From positions 1 to 50,219 of the forward strand of contig JANQHN010000102.1 in the NCBI GenBank assembly GCA_028282665.1: 50,219 nt of DNA, given 5' to 3'. This document shows, piece after piece, positions 1 to 50,219 of this stretch. The DNA is from Phycisphaerae bacterium. GTDB taxonomy: Bacteria > Planctomycetota > Phycisphaerae > UBA1845. A program made the position numbers and the translations under genes. Numbering within the stretch: position 1 is the first letter of the stretch; each line of letters begins with the position of its first letter. The notes beneath the pieces were generated by a model. That model saw only the letters and a program-made list of their open reading frames with translations. It searched no databases and had not been told where the DNA came from.

Positions 1-684
1 CGTTGTCGATGCGGTGCGAGACAGGTCGAAATCCTGATAGTACCCCACCGTCCGCCCCGCAAGTCCGGTCAGATGAATATCCTCGTAAGAGAGCGTAAGT
101 GAAACGTGGTCCAGCGGCGCAGCCAAGGCGTATCCGGTACCAAACTGCACAAGATCCCGCCCCGCGCTTACCTTGACGCCGACCGGAGAAGAATGGCCCG
201 CCGCACTTAACGCGCGATTCAAGTTGAATCGGTAATACCCTCTTTCGAGTCGCGGTCCTTCGATCTTATTGTCATCGCCGTCGTAAGCGTCTTCCGTATT
301 GAAATCGAGCACGCTGAACAAACCGCGTGCGTAAAATTCATGCCCCCCGTTCTCGAAGGACAGCCGCCCCCAAGTCCGAAAGTCGTGCCTTCGCAGGGTG
401 CGTGATTCGTTTCCACCATCGTCATAGCGGAAAAAATAGAACGTGTACCACCCACCGTAATCGTAATCAAACTTGCTCGATAGCCCCAAAAGACTGCCTT
501 GGCGTGCGCGAATTTCTTCCTGAACGATGCGTTGCTGATTGGTGAAAGAGGCGGGCTCTGTGTAAGGACTGACCGCGTAACTGCTGGGCAGTGCCATTGG
601 GAAAAGAGCCATAACAAGACAAAACGTCCAACGGCAACCGAGCGCCGGTATGAAGATTCGCTGATAGCAACGACGTTGGTCCAC
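1..684 (-). CDS. Partial secreted/outer-membrane beta-barrel-like protein (alginate-export-family-like), runs off the left edge; not in the ORF track
   Basis: Manual translation is open from GTG 684 (alternatives ATG 612 or 750) to position 1: ...WTFCLVMALFPMALPSSYAVS...KFDYDYGGWYTFYFFRYDDGGNESRTLRRHDFRTWGRLSFENGGHEFYARGLFSVLDFNTEDAYDGDDNKIEGPRLERGYYRFNLNR...VSAGRDLVQFGTGYALAAPLD. Signal-like N-terminus and alternating aromatic beta-strand pattern. The family assignment is from memory. Confidence 0.65.
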   Translation of the reverse strand, partial: MDQRRCYQRIFIPALGCRWTFCLVMALFPMALPSSYAVSPYTEPASFTNQQRIVQEEIRARQGSLLGLSSKFDYDYGGWYTFYFFRYDDGGNESRTLRRHDFRTWGRLSFENGGHEFYARGLFSVLDFNTEDAYDGDDNKIEGPRLERGYYRFNLNRALSAAGHSSPVGVKVSAGRDLVQFGTGYALAAPLDHVSLTLSYEDIHLTGLAGRTVGYYQDFDLSRTASTT

Positions 685-1940: not shown

Positions 1941-3775
1941 GAATCAGCACCGCATCCGGCTTCGCTAATGTGGCTGGAGTCATTGTTTGGAGAGTGGGAC
2001 GATTGACTGTGAGGTATATCCGGCATCGCTGGCCAGGGTTTGATTAGCTCGGCGGGCGCGTTGGCGAAACGCATCGCCGCATTGACCAAACCCATAAAAA
2101 AAGGTTGGGGGCAAAGTGGCCTGCTGGTAAGTTCCGGATGCGCCTGAGTCGCCAGGAAATAAGGGTGCACAGTCTCGGGAAGCTCCAATACTTGCATGAT
2201 CGGATGATCGGGTGCCTTCCCCGAAAAAATCAGCCCCGCGGCCTCAAGTTGTTCAACGTAAACAGGATCAACCTCATAACGATGACGGAAGCGCATTCGA
2301 ATCAATTCCGCGCTATCACAAAGCCGAGACGCCAAAGAGCCCTCCTTAAGCACCACATCGAATCCGCCAAGACGCATGTTCCCACCCAAACCCTCAATCT
2401 TCTTCTGCTCGGGAAGAATGTCGACCACAGGATGTGAGCTATCCGGATCGATCTCAGTGCTGCTCGCGTGCTCCAGACCACATAGATGACGCGCGTACTC
2501 AATCACCGCGATCTGCATCCCATAACAAATACCCAAATATGGTATCTTGTTCTCACGGACATATTTCACACAGGCGATCTTGCCATCCACGCCACGCAAA
2601 CCGAAACCACCTGGCACGATCACCCCGTGAATTCCCTCTAGCTTGGCCTTCTTGGTCGCCTCGCTGAGATCCGAGCTGTCTACCCACTTGAGTTGCACTT
2701 TCGCCCCTAGATGCGTACCAGCGTGTTCCAGGGCGTGAATGATGCTTGCGTAGCTATCCCGAACCGTCGTGTACTTGCCGATGATCCCAATCGTGATCGG
2801 AAACTTCGCATTGCGAAAACGCTTGATGTACTCGTTCCACGTGGCCCGCTCCCGCTCTTCAGAACGGCTATCCACGCGATCGACAACCCCCAGCAAGTCC
2901 ATGACAGCCGTATCAATGCCCGCACCGCGCAGCATCTCCGGAATAACGTACGTACTATCGCAATCGTGCATTGAAAAGACGCGATCCATAGGAACGTTAG
3001 CGAATAGCGCTACTTTTTCCCGAACCTTCTTGTTCACTGGCTGAGATGCACGACAAGCAATGATATGAGGATGAATACCCGCCGCGTTGAGCAGCCTGAG
3101 GTTTAGTTGAGCGGGTTTGGACTTCTGCTCTCCGAGAGTTGGCGGTTCCACAATGTAGGTCAACGCAACAAAACAGAAATTGCCCGCCCCTTCTTCATGG
3201 GCCATCTCACGGACCGCCTCGATAAGATAAGCGTTTTCAACATCCCCTGCGGTCCCACCCATCTCAACGAAAATGACATCGGCCTCGGAAGTCACCGCGA
3301 GATTTCGTAAACGCAGTTTCACTTCGCCGGTTACGTGCGGGATCATCTGTACGTCACGACCGAGATAAGCGCCTTTCCGTTCTCGCTCGAGTACTGCCGA
3401 GAGAATCCGGCCGCTGGTAACAAAATTCTGCCGCGTCAGGTCCGTATTGAGCATGCGCTCGTACGTACCCAGGTCCATGTCACACTCCATCCCGTCATCC
3501 AGGACAAACACCTCGCCGTGGCGATAAGGATTAAGCGTGCCGCTGTCGTGATTGAGGTAACCTTCGAGTTTGATAGGTGAAACCGTGAACCCCTTATCCT
3601 GCAATACCTTTGCAAGCGAACTGGAGAAAATCCCCTTGCCCAATCCACTCATCACCGTGCCGAAAACAATGACGTACTTGGTCTTGCCCGGCTTGTAACC
3701 CGACGGCATGGGCGTAAAAAATTCCGTCTCGTCGGAAATCTGACTTAAGGAAGCGAGAAGCTTTTCAGAACTCAT
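1931..3775 (-). CDS. pyrG: CTP synthase
   Basis: GTVMSGLGKG, YLNHDSGTLNPYRHGEVFVLDDGMECDMDLGTYERM, GEQKSKP, and glutaminase motifs VPGGFG, LGICYGMQ, RFRHRYEV, QAHPE. Confidence 0.97.
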   Translation of the reverse strand: MSSEKLLASLSQISDETEFFTPMPSGYKPGKTKYVIVFGTVMSGLGKGIFSSSLAKVLQDKGFTVSPIKLEGYLNHDSGTLNPYRHGEVFVLDDGMECDMDLGTYERMLNTDLTRQNFVTSGRILSAVLERERKGAYLGRDVQMIPHVTGEVKLRLRNLAVTSEADVIFVEMGGTAGDVENAYLIEAVREMAHEEGAGNFCFVALTYIVEPPTLGEQKSKPAQLNLRLLNAAGIHPHIIACRASQPVNKKVREKVALFANVPMDRVFSMHDCDSTYVIPEMLRGAGIDTAVMDLLGVVDRVDSRSEERERATWNEYIKRFRNAKFPITIGIIGKYTTVRDSYASIIHALEHAGTHLGAKVQLKWVDSSDLSEATKKAKLEGIHGVIVPGGFGLRGVDGKIACVKYVRENKIPYLGICYGMQIAVIEYARHLCGLEHASSTEIDPDSSHPVVDILPEQKKIEGLGGNMRLGGFDVVLKEGSLASRLCDSAELIRMRFRHRYEVDPVYVEQLEAAGLIFSGKAPDHPIMQVLELPETVHPYFLATQAHPELTSRPLCPQPFFMGLVNAAMRFANAPAELIKPWPAMPDIPHSQSSHSPNNDSSHISEAGCGADSCR

Positions 3776-3860: not shown

Positions 3861-4649
3861 TTACGCACTCACTTTGGCAACGTAACGAGTCACGAACGCT
3901 TCATAGTCCTCCGGTGTGTCGATCCCCTTGCAGCGATGTTCGACAACCACTACCGCGATCGGCAAGCCATGCTCCAACCAGCGGAGTTGCTCCAAAGACT
4001 CCGCCTCCTCAAGCACACTTTTCGCCCCTCCGCTGCGAAACACCATATGCTCGAAAACTTCCAAACGAAAGGCATACACACCCAAGTGCAAAAGCCATTG
4101 CGACGGCCGCAACACTTCCCCCTCTGAAGACCTGGGGTAAGGCAACAGCGATCTCGAAAAAAACAACGCCCGGCCCGATGAATCCAACACCACTTTCACC
4201 GCATTGGGATCGGCTGGTGATCCGGGACCGGACTTCGGACCGTCTTCGTCAAACCGTACCGCGAGCGTCCCAATGGACGTTTTCTCGTTACTAGCTAACA
4301 TCCGATCGACCAACCGATCCAGGTCGCCAGGATCGATCTCCGGTTCATCACCCTGAACGTTCAGCACAATGTCCGAAGCAGCAAGATCGAGTCCCGCAAC
4401 GACCTCGCCAATCCGATCCGTACCGCTACGATGATCTTCACGCGTCATGCACGCCTCTCCACCAAAGGACTGCACCGCGTCGAAGATACGTTGATCGTCA
4501 GTTGCCACGATGATCCGATCAACACGCGCGGACGCTCTCGCCCGATCGTACACATGCTCGATCAAATACTTTCCTGTCTTATTGGCGAGGGGTTTCCCGT
4601 TGAATCGTGTGGAGGCGTAGCGGGCCGGTATGACCGCCACAGTGGTCAC
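3861..4649 (-). CDS. kdsB: 3-deoxy-manno-octulosonate cytidylyltransferase (CMP-Kdo synthetase)
   Basis: VIPARYASTRFNGKPL, VATDDQRI, HRSGTDRI, NVQGDEP, ALFFSRS, HLGVYAFR, ESLEQLRWLE, GIDTPEDYE; AAGGAGG RBS before GTG. Confidence 0.97.
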   Translation of the reverse strand: MTTVAVIPARYASTRFNGKPLANKTGKYLIEHVYDRARASARVDRIIVATDDQRIFDAVQSFGGEACMTREDHRSGTDRIGEVVAGLDLAASDIVLNVQGDEPEIDPGDLDRLVDRMLASNEKTSIGTLAVRFDEDGPKSGPGSPADPNAVKVVLDSSGRALFFSRSLLPYPRSSEGEVLRPSQWLLHLGVYAFRLEVFEHMVFRSGGAKSVLEEAESLEQLRWLEHGLPIAVVVVEHRCKGIDTPEDYEAFVTRYVAKVSA

Positions 4650-4911
4650 CGTCCCACCTCCTTCATCGGATTGTAAAAAATCTTGTGCTGCACGGGCCGA
4701 TGTTACAGACGACCCTCGCGTCTGTCAAACGAATAACAGCCAATCTGCCTCGTCTTGCACGGTTTCACTTCACTAACGGATGCTCGCTTTTGTATTTGCA
4801 TCCAATCTGGCAACGCCTACCATAAAGCCTTGGACGGAGAGTTTCTGTTAATCACGTATCACGTCCGAACGACCTGGCCAACGCACTGACGAAAAAACAG
4901 CGGAGTAAATC

Positions 4912-6255
4912 ATGAGTTCCAAATGGTTGCTCACTTGGTTGATCATGGGCGGACTGGTACTCGGACTCATCGTGGGGCAGTTGCTTCACGACCCGGACTT
5001 CACCATCACCCAGCCCGATCGGGAACACGCGCATAACCAGGTCATCTCCGCCTTCTATTTCGTCGGTGATACAATCTTCCTCGGTTTGCTTAAGATGTTG
5101 GTCATCCCGCTGATCGCTACTAGTGTCATCGTGGGAGTAACGAGCATCGGTGACTTCCGCGAATTGGGCAAAATCGGCTCAGTTACGCTGGTCTATTACG
5201 TAGTGACCATGCTCATTGCAGCAGGAATCGGCCTGGTGCTGGTCACCACGATGGAACCCGGAAAGCAGATTTCCTCTGAGGAAGTCGCAAAGGGACAGGA
5301 AACGTATGAACGCAGTACGGGCATTCAAACCAACATCAAGCATCGCCCGGAAGGCGTGCTGGGCGCCTTGCACAGCCTTGTTAAACAGATCATTCCACGA
5401 AACATCGTGAAAGCGGCAGCTCAAGGGCAGGCACTACCGATTATTTTCTTTTCCATCATCCTGGGAATCGCAATCACCACGATGGGAGAGCGAGGGAAAA
5501 TCCTTTCGCAGGGGTTTTCCGCCCTCTTTGAAGCGATCATGATTCTGGTTCATGTGGTCATTTGGCTCACGCCGATCGGCGTATTTGCTCTGCTTGCGTG
5601 GACTGTCGCGCGAATCGGCCTGGGAGTGTTCACTTCGGCGATAGGTACCTACATGGCTGCAGTCCTGATCGGGCTCGCAATCCACGCCTTCATTGTCCTA
5701 CCGCTCTTTTGTGTCGTGTTCGCTCGAACGAATCCTTTCACGTACATGCATCAGATGCGCCAGGCATTGATGACGGCCTTTGGAACGGACTCGTCCTCAG
5801 CAACGCTGCCGGTGACGATAGAATGCGCCACGGAAAACGCGGAAGTCAGTAAGAAAGCGGCGGGGTTCGTGTTGCCCCTCGGCTCAACGATCAACATGGA
5901 CGGTACTGCCCTTTATGAGGCCGTCGCAGTGGTATTTCTGGCCCAAGCTTATGGCCTGGAATTGCCGACTAGCACACTGGTCCTAGTCGCGATCACCGCC
6001 ACTATGGCCGCTATCGGCGCAGCCGGCATCCCAAGCGCGGGTTTGGTCACTATGGTCATCGTCGTCGACACGGTCAATAGCACTTTAAGCGGTATGGGAG
6101 AAACAAATCTCTTACCAATCGCGGCAGTCGGGCTTGTCGTGGGGGTGGACCGAATCCTCGACATGGTACGCACAACCGTAAATGTTTGGGGCGATGCAGT
6201 TGGGGCAAAAATTGTCGATCGTCTCGACAAAAAACAAACCGCCACAATCAAATAG
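4912..6255 (+). CDS. Dicarboxylate/amino acid:cation symporter (DAACS, GltP/GltT family)
   Basis: FLGLLKMLVIPLI, AFGTDSSSATLP, PLGSTINMDGTALYE, AAIGAAGIPSAG, VDRILDMVRTTVNVWGD. Confidence 0.95.
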   Translation: MSSKWLLTWLIMGGLVLGLIVGQLLHDPDFTITQPDREHAHNQVISAFYFVGDTIFLGLLKMLVIPLIATSVIVGVTSIGDFRELGKIGSVTLVYYVVTMLIAAGIGLVLVTTMEPGKQISSEEVAKGQETYERSTGIQTNIKHRPEGVLGALHSLVKQIIPRNIVKAAAQGQALPIIFFSIILGIAITTMGERGKILSQGFSALFEAIMILVHVVIWLTPIGVFALLAWTVARIGLGVFTSAIGTYMAAVLIGLAIHAFIVLPLFCVVFARTNPFTYMHQMRQALMTAFGTDSSSATLPVTIECATENAEVSKKAAGFVLPLGSTINMDGTALYEAVAVVFLAQAYGLELPTSTLVLVAITATMAAIGAAGIPSAGLVTMVIVVDTVNSTLSGMGETNLLPIAAVGLVVGVDRILDMVRTTVNVWGDAVGAKIVDRLDKKQTATIK

Positions 6256-6702
6256 GCAAGCCATGTACGGCTGTTGTCGTCCTGGATCAGGCTCGAAATC
6301 AACTCCAGATGAACAAGTGCTTTCCAACAGCTTCACACTTCAGCTGCGATAGCTTGCAAGCCGCCATCTCAATACGAAGCTCCGATTTAGTGGGTAATTT
6401 GAATAGCCTGACATAGGCAAATCAGGCCTGATTCACGCCGATTTTCAGTGTGACATAATAGCAGGATGCGGCTTAGCGCAGACCAATACAGACGAGCACG
6501 TACGAACACGCGGCAAAGTAAGAACATAGCGCTCTGATTTCGAACGAATTGGCGAGTTACTTACGAACTGAGGTAGACTACCCATACCGCGAATCTTAAA
6601 ATGCAGTAAAGTCAATTTGTTTTAAACTGAGTCACTGTAAACCTCTATCCCACTGAGCGGTCCTCATTGCGCACCATAGCGGCCAATTGAGGGCCCTCGA
6701 TC

Positions 6703-10134: not shown

Positions 10135-11477
10135 AACCCATGCCCGGTCAAATCGACTCAGGCTCAAAGCTACTCATGTTGTCGGTGATGTGTCTTACGT
10201 GTATGGCAATCGGTTCGGCTTCAGCGTTACAGCCTGATTCATCTTTGACCTGTCCAGCAAAACCCGGTGAAATCGCCGAGTTGGTACGAGACCTTGAGAG
10301 CGAAGTCTACGACACTCGCACTTTCGCCACGCGGCGGTTATGCGCCATCGGGATTTCTGCCCGCGACGCACTGCGTAAAGCGGCCGATAGCGACAGCTTC
10401 GAGCTCGCCATGCGAGCGGAAGCCGTTTTGGCGATCCTGGACCAAATTCTCTTCTCAGGCGTCGATGTAGAATTGCAATTCAGTGCAGATAAAACCGCCT
10501 GGGATAAACCAGTCGATCTGATCGTGACATTTGCAAATCGATCAAAATACCCCGCCAGACTACCTTTTGCCACCAAATCAATTTCCGAAGAAGGGCAATC
10601 TCGGGAAACGCGGCAGGTGCTGACCATGTTGAACTTTGCTGATTGGCTCGTGGTGCAGCGGATGGGTTCGCAAGCCCCCATGTCGGTGACGGTGGAAGAC
10701 ATAGGCCTGGACAGTACCATTCAAACAGCCGTGGAAAAATCGATCGAATCGACAGAATTCTCCATATTGAAACCAGGAGAGCAGGCGGAAATGCGAATAA
10801 GTCCGTTTAACCGCGGGTTCGCCCGTTACCGCATGCTTGACGAGGGTGTGTATCAGGCGCGTTTCGTTTATCTGCCGGAATGGAATGACCCGGTTTTGTT
10901 GGAAGCGCGCGCAGGTTCAGTGGAAAGCAATGCAGTCCAGATCCAGCTGACAGCCGCAGCACCGCAAACCGTCGCACGACACAATTCGACGGCGAAGCTA
11001 GTGCTCCAGGAAGAAGAACAACAGGTCGTCGCGCGGATCATCAATCGCCATGATTTGCCGATCGTAGTGAATCTCAACGCAGGACCGGCGGTTCCGTTCG
11101 CCCAGATGCGATGGGTCGTCACAACCCAAACAGGCCACGAACGCATGGTTCCAGCATGGGGCGGTACGACGGATACATTGCGTGATTTTAAAGCGAAGCT
11201 GCTCAAGACCGTCCCGCCGGGGGAAGCGGTTATCCTTTTCCAACTACCTAAAAAAGAACTGAGCGAAACAATCGTCAAAGAATTGGGCAAGGATGCAGGC
11301 AAGCCCGTTGCAATCCGACTGCGGTATTCCAACATACTCAGTCGACGTTGGCAACAACTCCGTATCAAAGAAATCAAATCCACGAATCCGGACAATGCGT
11401 TGAACAAGCCAGTCCCTCGTGAATTAATTACGTTGGATCTCATTAGTGATGCGATTACCCTGCGGCATGAACCATAG
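10131..11477 (+). CDS. Secreted hypothetical protein with N-terminal HEAT-like helical segment
   Basis: Signal peptide (LLMLSVMCLTCMAIGSASA); ELVRDLESEVYDTRTFATRRLCAIGISARDALRKAADSDSFELAMRAEAVL is HEAT-like; beta-rich remainder. Confidence 0.7.
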   Translation: MKPMPGQIDSGSKLLMLSVMCLTCMAIGSASALQPDSSLTCPAKPGEIAELVRDLESEVYDTRTFATRRLCAIGISARDALRKAADSDSFELAMRAEAVLAILDQILFSGVDVELQFSADKTAWDKPVDLIVTFANRSKYPARLPFATKSISEEGQSRETRQVLTMLNFADWLVVQRMGSQAPMSVTVEDIGLDSTIQTAVEKSIESTEFSILKPGEQAEMRISPFNRGFARYRMLDEGVYQARFVYLPEWNDPVLLEARAGSVESNAVQIQLTAAAPQTVARHNSTAKLVLQEEEQQVVARIINRHDLPIVVNLNAGPAVPFAQMRWVVTTQTGHERMVPAWGGTTDTLRDFKAKLLKTVPPGEAVILFQLPKKELSETIVKELGKDAGKPVAIRLRYSNILSRRWQQLRIKEIKSTNPDNALNKPVPRELITLDLISDAITLRHEP

Positions 11478-11549
11478 CAACGAAAGAATGGAATCTTTGC
11501 GAGTGTCTCGGCCCGAACCGAGCACTCACGCCTATTCGATGGATCAGCG

Positions 11550-12545
11550 TTGAGCAACCACCCTCACCAGTCCGACCCCGCACGTATGTCGTTTGGGGAG
11601 CACCTCGATGAATTGAGGCAAACCCTGATTTGGGCACTCGCAGGCGTCGTTGTCGGTACTGTGATATGCCTGGCCATCGGCAGGCATATTCTGGCCGTGC
11701 TGTTTCAACCGTTGCTGATTGTGCAAAGCTACAACGGACTCCCTATGGAGTTGCAGGCGCTCGCTCCCGCAGCCGCATTTCTCGCTTATCTCAAAATTGG
11801 GTTTATGTCAGGACTGCTGTTGTCGATGCCCTGGGTGCTCTATCAAGCGTGGCGTTTTATTGCCAGCGGCTTGTATCCGCAGGAGCGCCGATTTGTTCGT
11901 AATCTGGTTCCTGTTTCGTTACTCCTCTTTGTGTTAGGTGTGTTGTTTTTATACTTCATCGTGTTGCCCATCGTTTTGCACTTCTTCATTTCATTCAATA
12001 AACAGTTCGCTCCACCTGAAGTGAAAAACGACGGCTTCTACAGTTGGCTATTGCCCGAAAAAGAGGAGGTCGAAAGCGACGTTTTACCCACACCACTGGA
12101 AATACCGATTCTAGAGGAAGATCCAAAAGAACTGACGGTCGATGCCGTTTGGTTCAACGGGCAGCAGCGTAAGCTGAAAGTGGCGGCGGATGGCAAGGTC
12201 TGGTCCGTCGCCATGCGGAAAGACGATCAATATTCCTCCGTGCAAAGCATGTTCGCGATCGACTTCTACATCAGTTTCGTGCTGTCACTCGCGCTGGCGT
12301 TCGGTATCGCGTTCGAACTACCTGTTGTGGTGTACTTTCTTGCGCGGTCGGGAATCGTGCCGGTGTCGGTCATGGCACGAGGCAGGCGTTACGTGCTGTT
12401 CGGTATCGTGGTGATTGCCGCACTCATGACTCCGCCGGACGTGATTAGTCAACTTTTGCTCGCCGGACCTATGTACCTGCTTTTTGAACTGGGCCTGTTT
12501 ATCGGACGTGGAAAGAAACGGAAACAGCAACGACCAACAGCCTGA
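11550..12545 (+). CDS. tatC: Twin-arginine translocase subunit TatC
   Basis: RMSFGEHLDELR, PWVLYQAWRFIASGLYPQERR, FGIAFELPVV, AALMTPPDVISQLLLAGPMYLLFELG. Confidence 0.95.
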   Translation: MSNHPHQSDPARMSFGEHLDELRQTLIWALAGVVVGTVICLAIGRHILAVLFQPLLIVQSYNGLPMELQALAPAAAFLAYLKIGFMSGLLLSMPWVLYQAWRFIASGLYPQERRFVRNLVPVSLLLFVLGVLFLYFIVLPIVLHFFISFNKQFAPPEVKNDGFYSWLLPEKEEVESDVLPTPLEIPILEEDPKELTVDAVWFNGQQRKLKVAADGKVWSVAMRKDDQYSSVQSMFAIDFYISFVLSLALAFGIAFELPVVVYFLARSGIVPVSVMARGRRYVLFGIVVIAALMTPPDVISQLLLAGPMYLLFELGLFIGRGKKRKQQRPTA

Positions 12546-47904: not shown

Positions 47905-48468
47905 TCAGCTGCTAATCGTCGTTTTCCGCTCCGCCAAACGGCGCTTCACTTCGCGCGTAAACTCGACCTGCTGCTTGGAGTAGTCCCAAGTGTCCAGCTT
48001 TAGGAATGCGAGTTTATCCCCGTTGGATGCAGTCAAAACCAATACGTTCAGATCGTGCTTAGCTTGCGCGATTTTCTCCCAGGGAATTCGCTTGAGGAAG
48101 CGTGTACCACACATCAGTTGGATGCCCTCATCGGTCAATGTCGCGAAAGATCTGAAGTACAGCCCTTGCCGCAATCGGTACGTTACCAGACCAATAACAA
48201 ACAGGCTGCCCGCGACGTTCATCAATGCGCCAGTATGCCCCCGCAGCACCCCGGCGAACACAACGAACGCCAGATACAAAGCAACGATCACAAGCACAGT
48301 CACATTCAACCAGAATCGCACGGTGTATCGTCCATCCTGCTTGTACGAGGCGGAGAGCGGAAAAACCATCATCTCCGACGTGTAGTAAAAGCCGCACTCC
48401 GGGCAAGCGTAATCCGTTGGCAGCCCCTTGCAGGGATAGTCGCAAGCTGGGCAAACGGACAATGCCAA
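47905..48468 (-). CDS. Zinc-ribbon + 2-TM hypothetical protein (paralog A)
   Basis: CPACDY...CPECGF, two TM helices, LTDEGI...IPWE...DTWDYSKQQVEFTREVKRRLAER. Confidence 0.8.
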   Translation of the reverse strand: MALSVCPACDYPCKGLPTDYACPECGFYYTSEMMVFPLSASYKQDGRYTVRFWLNVTVLVIVALYLAFVVFAGVLRGHTGALMNVAGSLFVIGLVTYRLRQGLYFRSFATLTDEGIQLMCGTRFLKRIPWEKIAQAKHDLNVLVLTASNGDKLAFLKLDTWDYSKQQVEFTREVKRRLAERKTTISS

Positions 48469-48525: not shown

Positions 48526-49101
48526 TCAGCGGTGCCGGCAACTCGACTTTATCCCTCTGTCCCTTTCCGCCAACCGCCGCTTGACTTCGCGCATGAACCC
48601 GACTTGCTCCTTGCAATAATTCCACGTATCTATCGGCAGAATGGCGAGTCGTCGGCCTTTACGCGACTTCACCACGAATTGCCCCAGAAACTGCCGAGTC
48701 TGCCCGATCGTTTCCCAAAGGATTTTCTTCCGGCAACGCTGCCCACGCATAAGCATGATTCCCTCGTCCGTAAGCAACGCGTACGGCTTGACATACGTAT
48801 ACAACCATAATTTGTACATCACCACACCAAGTGGTATTAACGGTAAGAACAAGATAGCAATTGTCCCTACGCTTCCCTGGGTAATCCATGTGATGGCCGG
48901 AGGTATGCAAAAAGCCACCGTCATCACAACGGCAACCAAAACCAACCAGAATCGTCTGGTAGGTTCGCCTCTCCGCTCATGCAGTTGGGCAAGTGGAAAA
49001 ACCATCATCTCCGCACTGTAAGCGAACCCGCACTCCGGACAAAAATGATTTTCCGGTAGTCCTTCGAAAGAATAGTCACAGACGGGGCATTGCGTTAGCA
49101 T
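48526..49101 (-). CDS. Zinc-ribbon + 2-TM hypothetical protein (paralog B)
   Basis: CPVCDY...CPECGF, two TM helices, LTDEGI...ILWE...DTWNYCKEQVGFMREVKRRLAER. Confidence 0.8.
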   Translation of the reverse strand: MLTQCPVCDYSFEGLPENHFCPECGFAYSAEMMVFPLAQLHERRGEPTRRFWLVLVAVVMTVAFCIPPAITWITQGSVGTIAILFLPLIPLGVVMYKLWLYTYVKPYALLTDEGIMLMRGQRCRKKILWETIGQTRQFLGQFVVKSRKGRRLAILPIDTWNYCKEQVGFMREVKRRLAERDRGIKSSCRHR

Positions 49102-49627
49102 GATAGCACAGTTGGCGAATGGCTGCGGGCGCCTTCAAAACCCTCACACCCTTGAAGCGATTTTCTCTAAAACTGCAATTTGTTCACAAAACCGATGCGG
49201 GACTTCTTCATCTTTCGCCTGCGGTCGAAGTGGTTGCCGAGAACGGTTAGCACCTCCTGATCCGCGTCATCTACCGGAATCAGTTTTGTCCAATTCTTTT
49301 GCATCGATGCACTTGTCTTGGTTGAATGTCACGCGATGGCTCCCAGAACCAAAAATCCTGAAAGTAGGCCGGTGTAACAACATGAAACACTTTCCCCAGC
49401 CAAGGGCTTCGACGGCAATTCAACCAACATGCCCTAAATACCGAACAGAAAAAACCATCGATCGAATTCGGCTTTGTGTGCCCGGCACACCTTATCGACA
49501 CGGACAGGTGGTCAGACTTGCACCAATCGTTGTGAACATCGCGTCTTTCACTTCATGACTCAACCGATAGGATACTGCTGAAGTTGGGAAACCCCAAAGT
49601 GCATCACCCGCAACGGGAACGGATATC

Positions 49628-49768
49628 ATGAAATCATACCGTAAAGAATTGTGGTTCGAGACGGAAACGCGACGAGCGTTCATTAACATTACGCGCGACG
49701 TGCAGCAGGCCATTGCAAAAAGCGGTGTGCAAGAAGGACTTTGTTTGGTAAATACAACGCGGATTTAG
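49628..49768 (+). pseudogene. yjbQ: 5' fragment of yjbQ (UPF0047, secondary thiamine-phosphate synthase family), interrupted after codon 42; not in the ORF track
   Basis: [42 protein letters not shown] then TTRI*. The family normally continues ..H(I/T)TAS..IN(D/E). Confidence 0.85.
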
Positions 49769-50219
49769 TTAACCCATCTTGCAGCAACGGCTCGCCGCCA
49801 TCGTAGTGCCCCGCGAGGTACTCCTTTTCCGCGTCAACCAGCGGGGCCTGGTACTCCTCGCTGATGAGGTGGCCGCGTATGTAGTAGTCGAACCTCTTCT
49901 GGCGTTTATCCTCCTCGCCCGCGACCCAGCCGATATAAACGCCCATGCGTCGCTCGGTCGGCACTGGCTTCTCCCCGCGTGCTTTGGCTTCCTCCGCCTC
50001 CTGCTGCGTCACCATCGGCATCGTTCCGCCAAACACCATCTCGACCAACTTCCGCTTCTCGTCGTACGTCATGCTCTCGTAACCCGCGTGCCCGGCCACC
50101 ACGGCGGCCATCGCCTCGGCCCGGCGGCGGGTGGTGTCGGAGTCCGGGGCATCACGCAAGGCGGCATCCAGCCGGTCCCGCTCGTTGGTTAGGTGCTCAA
50201 CCTTCCGCTTGGATTTAGC
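49689..50219 (-). CDS. C-terminal part of a probable large serine recombinase/integrase (runs off the right edge)
   Basis: Frame is open to the window end: [25 protein letters not shown] (coiled coil) ... [16 protein letters not shown] ... GVYI, resembling LSR C-termini. It sits at the yjbQ break. The catalytic domain is not visible. Confidence 0.55.
49754..50219. mobile_element. Left end of an integrated element inserted in yjbQ
   Basis: YjbQ similarity stops abruptly at ~49753; the sequence becomes visibly more GC-rich; a recombinase-like ORF points at the junction. Confidence 0.65.

Follow-up and report, generated by a model that had tools for sequence, protein, structure and literature searches.

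A serine-integrase element very probably inserted into one codon of yjbQ at the end of a Phycisphaerae contig

The window, a stretch of 50,219 nucleotides, is the entire contig C326 of a Phycisphaerae metagenome-assembled genome (MAG) that comprises 446 contigs, is 88% complete and has 1839 bases as the length of its smallest contig kept. Close to the right end of the window, the gene yjbQ breaks off after 42 codons, and the DNA beyond the break contains an open reading frame (ORF) on the opposite strand that faces the break. We asked what interrupted the gene and whether the interruption could be reversed. A reading of the letters without database searches (the sequence-only reading) had proposed yjbQ as the target into which a serine-integrase element integrated, and excision as a possible switch that restores the gene. 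The first proposal was upheld by the analysis described here and the second was not. The window very probably ends at the integrase-proximal edge of a mobile element, which a large serine recombinase (LSR) inserted site-specifically into the coding sequence of the host yjbQ. We infer the integration from one junction in the window, read together with the loci of relatives.

The ORF at 49628..49768 (+) encodes 46 amino acids, the first 42 of which are YjbQ. In a gapless alignment, they show 74-76% identity to the 139-aa YjbQ of same-family genomes, including G002 and G014, and there is neither a stop codon nor a frameshift across codons 1-42. Over all 46 residues, the identity to the 139-aa YjbQ of three same-family genomes was 69.6-71.7% (tblastn). 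From Asn42 on, intact YjbQ reads NAMHITASV and the window reads NTTRI followed by a stop codon. The likeness of the yjbQ DNA to G014 and G002 ends at 49752, and the GC content rises from 0.49-0.52 left of the junction to 0.59-0.65 right of it. An undamaged yjbQ fragment, an unrelated TTRI ending and GC-richer DNA beyond it had all been noticed from the letters, and all three observations hold. The family models PF01894 (E 0.0039, profile positions 1-24 of 117) and TIGR00149 YjbQ (E 7.8e-5, profile positions 2-37 of 132) matched the fragment under their cut-offs, which is expected because the fragment has 42 residues. Full-length orthologues resembling it scored E about 1e-38 with the family model. 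The gene is present in 142 of the 151 genomes of this order (PF01894 sweep), and this genome has two further UPF0047 paralogues. With one of three UPF0047 genes broken, the impact on the host is minor. Just upstream of yjbQ are tandem paralogous genes at 47905-48468 (-) and 48526-49101 (-), whose products of 187 and 191 aa share an N-terminal zinc-ribbon-like motif, CPxCDY...CPECGF, followed by hydrophobic stretches.

The minus-strand ORF at 49689..50219 encodes 176 aa and is open at the contig end. Scans of this ORF against Pfam, NCBIfam and PHROGs gave no match (only noise of E>0.1 in PHROGs). A phmmer search of 1.84 billion representative proteins gave 25 matches at E<=1e-3, four at <=1e-10 and two at <=1e-30. 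The best full-length match, P0002 (561 aa), aligned over its residues 406-557 with an E-value of 3.2e-43 and 55% identity. Both P0002 and P0010 (568 aa) contain the domains Resolvase and Zn_ribbon_recom. Among the ten phmmer matches that were scanned for domains, six had Zn_ribbon_recom over the cut-off, P0019 was just below it, and three had neither domain. The closest relative was found on a metagenome contig (L010, 5967 bp), which carries a complete LSR of 566 aa; the window's integrase part is 82-83% identical to its residues 411-566. The LSRs of L010 and of two further loci, L013 and L014, also contain Resolvase and Zn_ribbon_recom. The ORF matches the C-terminal ~150 residues of full-length LSRs and therefore is, by homology, the C-terminal tail of an LSR, with the catalytic part beyond the contig end. 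The regions of PF00239, PF07508 and PF13408 lie upstream of the part in the window, where no catalytic domain is visible. The sequence-only reading had called the ORF recombinase-like and had pointed to domain models as a check; the identity was borne out by the homologues, which contain the domains, whereas the window ORF itself gave no Pfam match.

A search for this tail in 40 related genomes returned no relative, and 400 other genomes of the phylum gave only two weak matches (E 4e-7 and 5e-4). A profile search of genome contigs with a family alignment returned 432 pattern matches and no relative, and two scans of viral contigs, one with the L010 LSR and one with another family alignment, returned no relative either. 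The element may be a prophage or another kind of integrative element.

The same break was found in relatives. Related LSR ORFs end on an antisense 5' fragment of yjbQ broken at the Asn42 codon in four of the five other loci, which belong to different hosts. In L010, the yjbQ fragment stops after ...EGLCLVN, and ordinary host genes lie beyond it. When GTDB genomes were scanned with a small alignment that comprised more distant family members, four loci in Planctomycetota MAGs (L013-L016) came up. The integrases of L014, L015 and L016 show 36-41% identity, and an antisense yjbQ 5' fragment lies at the end of each. No yjbQ fragment was found at L013 within the ~670 bases available. Compared pairwise over 42 aa, the five yjbQ 5' fragments, from the window, L010, L014, L015 and L016, show 33-64% identity. 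Two of the relatives also show the far end of the element. In L015 (genome G442), the order on the yjbQ strand is apbE, the yjbQ 5' fragment, an insert of ~3 kb, the yjbQ 3' fragment from the Asn42 codon, and a glycosyltransferase gene. For genome G441, L014 contains the junction on the integrase side, and contig C200 contains the far one. G443, to which L016 belongs, yielded no far junction. The integrase ORF has 170 aa in L015 and 134 aa, beside ordinary host genes, in L016; both are remnants. The insertions in L015 and L016 are fixed because their integrases are truncated.

The two loci with both junctions allow the attachment site to be rebuilt. For centres from -12 to +12, we compared the element-side arms of the two junctions over 25 bases and counted the complementary matches in register. 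The rebuilt attP has a dyad centred on the dinucleotide AA, with 15 of 25 matches in G442 and 16 of 25 in G441; other centres gave at most 11, and 2000 shuffles gave a mean of about 6.5 (sd 2.2). In G442, the arms read GTAAC-N3-ATGTGC and GCACAT-N3-GTTAC. At the five integrase-side junctions, AA stands at the crossover place in every case, and the element arms of the window, L010, L014, L015 and L016 have ATTTAGTTAA in common and in register. The element arms of L015 and L016 look like the intact gene over ~13 bases right of the AA, so that identity alone does not place the crossover at these two loci. The window contains a single hybrid site, whose element arm is in register with the arms of the relatives. 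Judged from these dyads and from the end of similarity to the intact gene, recombination would have taken place at the AA of the Asn42 codon and would have joined the host B arm to the element P' arm, with the exact crossover base pair probably within this dinucleotide (Table 1). The candidate att site that the sequence-only reading had placed at ~49750-49755 agrees with this position.

Table 1. Location of the yjbQ fragment, the integrase gene, the putative attachment-site parts and the element-borne yjbQ copies (window coordinates unless a locus or contig is named)
Feature	Location	Strand	Basis or remark
Host yjbQ (UPF0047), codons 1-42 (Met1-Asn42)	49628..49753	+	identity to same-family YjbQ
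Read-through tail of the integrase ORF, 20 codons and stop, antisense of host yjbQ	49689..49751	-	ORF translation
B half-site, host arm of the hybrid att, encoding ...QEGLCLV; putative integrase-binding role	49726..49750	.	
Putative crossover dinucleotide AA (bases 1 and 2 of the Asn42 codon); att centre	49751..49752	.	inferred from attP dyads of relatives
LSR gene, C-terminal 156 codons, element-encoded; 5' end cut by the contig end	49752..50219	-	homology to P0002 and the L010 LSR
P' half-site, element arm with motif ATTTAGTTAA; reads as the foreign TTRI-stop in the yjbQ frame	49753..49777	.	in-register alignment
Element-borne yjbQ	L015 2515-2937; G441:C200 about 1627-2049	-; +	about 60-70 nt inside the far end

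The junction itself is real. Logan contigs from three runs of one coral-metagenome study span 49752 with no differing letters: X1 covers 48963-50219, X2 covers 48982-50003 and X3 covers 49480-49803. The depth is about 5, and X1 may be the source sample. The X1 contig stops 5 bases past the window end. No alternative join, loose end or empty-site form was seen at 49752 in these contigs, which as contigs drop rare variants. X1 and X2 have loose ends at 48995, probably from the repeat formed by the paralogous genes for the 187- and 191-aa proteins.

Two explanations would deny an integration into a host gene here. A chimera of assembly or binning could have joined a host contig to unrelated GC-rich DNA, as the fragmentation of the MAG, the position of the junction at 470 bases from a contig end and the GC step at that point would allow. 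It is scarcely credible, since the contigs of three runs bridge the junction without a difference, and four other records show related integrases against this same codon of yjbQ. Misassembly, which the sequence-only reading had named as a possible refutation, was thus not found. The yjbQ 5' fragment could also be a piece of gene that the element brought along, given that related elements bear a copy of yjbQ, although theirs is full-length and lies at the opposite end. This is very improbable, as the fragment follows the host phylogeny, has host-like GC content and is continuous with 49.6 kb of host contig. It is closest to the taxonomic relatives of the host and only 52% identical to the L010 fragment, although the integrases of the window and L010 are 82-83% identical. 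This comparison of identities marks the fragment as host DNA and the integrase as cargo. The LSR tail, the bridged junction and the break at the same codon in the other loci together support the proposal that yjbQ is the target of a serine integrase.

The displaced 3' part of yjbQ was not found in the MAG. Searches of the own genome (blastn and tblastn) with the tail and the fragment returned no 3' yjbQ, no integrase remainder and no second copy of the tail. YjbQ, Nfo and response-regulator queries from G002 and G014 returned no 3' yjbQ, and queries with the L010 LSR and the element-type yjbQ returned no integrase piece and no far junction. In G002 and G014, yjbQ is followed by nfo (endonuclease IV). 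The own genome (G000) has an nfo homologue on contig C11 at 11200-11839, which the contig end truncates at about codon 91, so that the first ~90 codons are missing. The end of C11 likely marks the other side of a gap in the assembly, in which the element, the 3' part of yjbQ and the beginning of nfo would lie. The sequence-only reading had expected the 3' half further right in the genome. That half did not turn up in a MAG of 88% completeness, but its expected neighbour did, cut off at a contig end. The assembly is fragmented because the depth is about 5, and short pieces below 1839 bases may have been dropped from the MAG.

The relatives with a visible far end show what may lie in this gap. 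In both of them (G442 and G441), the element contains a full-length yjbQ directly before the displaced host 3' fragment, and the host halves remain split. These copies encode 139-140 aa, contain no stops and match PF01894 with E-values of 1e-35 and 5e-35. Both have KLHLGPWEHIFY, whereas the host 3' fragments have RLDFGPWEQIFY at this place. Over the first 42 residues, a count on the translations gave ~64% identity between the two element copies, versus 40-43% between each copy and the host fragment in its genome. In these two relatives, the element looks like a replacement of its target gene, that is, compensation and not a switch, as far as can be judged from the sequences. The element of the window is probably whole; if its far end is like theirs, it may carry a spare yjbQ beside the displaced host 3' half.

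This layout bears on the question of reversibility. A regulatory switch, in which conditional excision restores a working yjbQ as in skin/sigK and SPbeta/spsM, would suit an insertion inside a coding sequence with an undamaged 5' fragment and a recombinase of the type that the skin and SPbeta switches use. We nevertheless consider it improbable. Neither an empty site nor an alternative join at 49752 was seen in the three runs (in contigs, where rare forms are missed), the full-length yjbQ that the element brings in two of two relatives with a visible far end makes a switch unnecessary, the insertions of two relatives are dead and unable to excise, and the genome has two more UPF0047 genes. To our knowledge, no developmental programme is tied to yjbQ. 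The proposal of excision as a gene-restoring switch was therefore not supported. The opposite explanation is a fixed scar: a decayed element with a truncated integrase, yjbQ as a permanent pseudogene and no excision. It is possible, on the doubtful side. Two of the four yjbQ-linked relatives are remnants (the ~3 kb insert of L015 and the 134-aa ORF of L016), and only 156 integrase codons are seen in the window before the contig ends. However, the visible part of the integrase is open and closely resembles the intact 566-aa LSR of L010, the yjbQ fragment shows no decay, and the contig end is most likely due to the depth of about 5. The preferred explanation remains the edge of an LSR element inserted into yjbQ.

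The integrase frame crosses the site. The integrase gene faces the junction, and the element contains no stop codon for it; the host supplies one at 49689-49691. Within the family, homology extends through ...L(V)TK(S)A and the next two residues (...TKSA(L)Y), beyond which the tails differ. The outer part of the P' arm encodes LTKSA in the window, and from there the frame continues for 20 codons into antisense yjbQ. In L010, L014 and L016, the host sequence supplies the integrase stop at once. We asked how far the tails of other homologues can be read as antisense yjbQ, taking in the phmmer matches with at least 7 further residues (n=11). Anchored tails were readable as the antisense of yjbQ [ED]-G-x-x-x-x-N in 7 of these 11 homologues, against 6 of 5000 random 8-mers, with a permissive pattern that was picked after seeing the sequences and with some anchors placed by eye. 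The other four decoded in part (P0003, 2 of 7 positions; P0011 and P0015, 5 of 7; P0005, 6 of 7). Decoding without an anchor was uninformative, as 7 of 7 was reached by 23 of 400 random sequences.

A wider hypothesis takes in both the spare copies and these tails. There may be an LSR lineage throughout the Planctomycetota in which a spare yjbQ replaces the destroyed gene and in which the integrase lacks a stop, so that its last ~20 residues are rewritten by integration and excision. We put this forward tentatively and regard it as unlikely. A precedent for the rewriting is the myxophage Mx8, whose attP lies within int and whose integration is reported to create a new 3' end and altered specificity (PMC6070905, PMC4383910). 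As in Mx8, the LSR ORF here spans attP, so integration would renew the 3' end of the gene. Mx8 Int, however, is a tyrosine recombinase that targets tRNA-linked sites, whereas the change here would affect a serine recombinase, and just its final ~20 residues. If the hypothesis is true, the rewriting of the integrase tail would be the serine-recombinase counterpart of Mx8 IntP/IntX; one may speculate that it could bias integration versus excision. A literature search for a serine integrase with attP inside its own gene returned nothing relevant, judged by titles.

Serine-integrase elements inside genes are already well known, and this event is of the ordinary kind. In Bacillus subtilis, SPbeta (with SprA) in spsM and skin (with SpoIVCA) in sigK excise in the mother cell and rebuild the gene. 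The element here is like these two in being an LSR element within a coding sequence with the integrase gene at its edge. It is unlike them in that no excision was seen, its far end is missing from the assembly, and the target gene is present as a spare copy in relatives. In Bacillus cereus ATCC10987, gin in gerE is a small, non-prophage gene-intervening element with a serine recombinase and is reported to give a sporulation-specific rearrangement (PMC5595907). The ~3-kb insert of L015 is similar to gin, but its integrase is truncated and the insert looks dead. Genomic islands in tRNA and tmRNA genes are reported to restore the gene that they split (Islander, PMC4383910). The elements of G441 and G442 are like these islands in making good the damage to their target. 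An island makes up the displaced tDNA end from shared sequence, whereas G441 and G442 have a complete second yjbQ inside the element end. For the target gene, yjbQ has been described as a recurrent hotspot of mobile-element insertion in Vibrio cholerae (bioRxiv 10.1101/2024.07.25.605194). The likeness is in the target gene; the available text of that source does not give the integrase type or the position within the gene. Searches of the literature for yjbQ with integrase, attB, prophage or serine recombinase found no serine integrase that targets yjbQ.

The features that deserve further attention are the spare-copy layout and the stop-less integrase gene. The locus also provides a precise natural landing site, one codon of yjbQ, for a little-known LSR branch, and there are enough junctions to write candidate attB and attP arms, which are raw material for genome-engineering tools. 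Moreover, it illustrates how a MAG can lose a mobile element, here reduced to 470 bases.

The loci of the relatives contain several other features. The broken 5' fragment of L016, at 4083-4220 (-), belongs to the type of the element copies, with 62% identity to the element copy of L015 versus 33-43% to the other host fragments. The integrase may have inserted into a yjbQ that another element had brought in before, or the host may possess this type natively; a full-length yjbQ of the L016-fragment type is found at G443:C792 606-968. At L013, with features at 5572-6375 (+) and 2004-2816 (+), the neighbours are a DUF2213 protein and a small resolvase with an HTH domain. The integrase tail of L013 ends in ...LLSKSQRSSTPR, which may reflect another target or an unintegrated form. 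Positions 1-276 (+) of L010 encode the C-terminal region of a tyrosine recombinase (Phage_integrase, E 1.5e-16), which ends 4 bases before the LSR gene starts. L014 has a second serine recombinase ORF at 4414-5118 (+), of 234 aa, with Resolvase (E 8e-30) and the start of a Recombinase domain. It is directly upstream of the 523-aa LSR, and the two may be a tandem pair, or the upstream ORF may be a broken second integrase.
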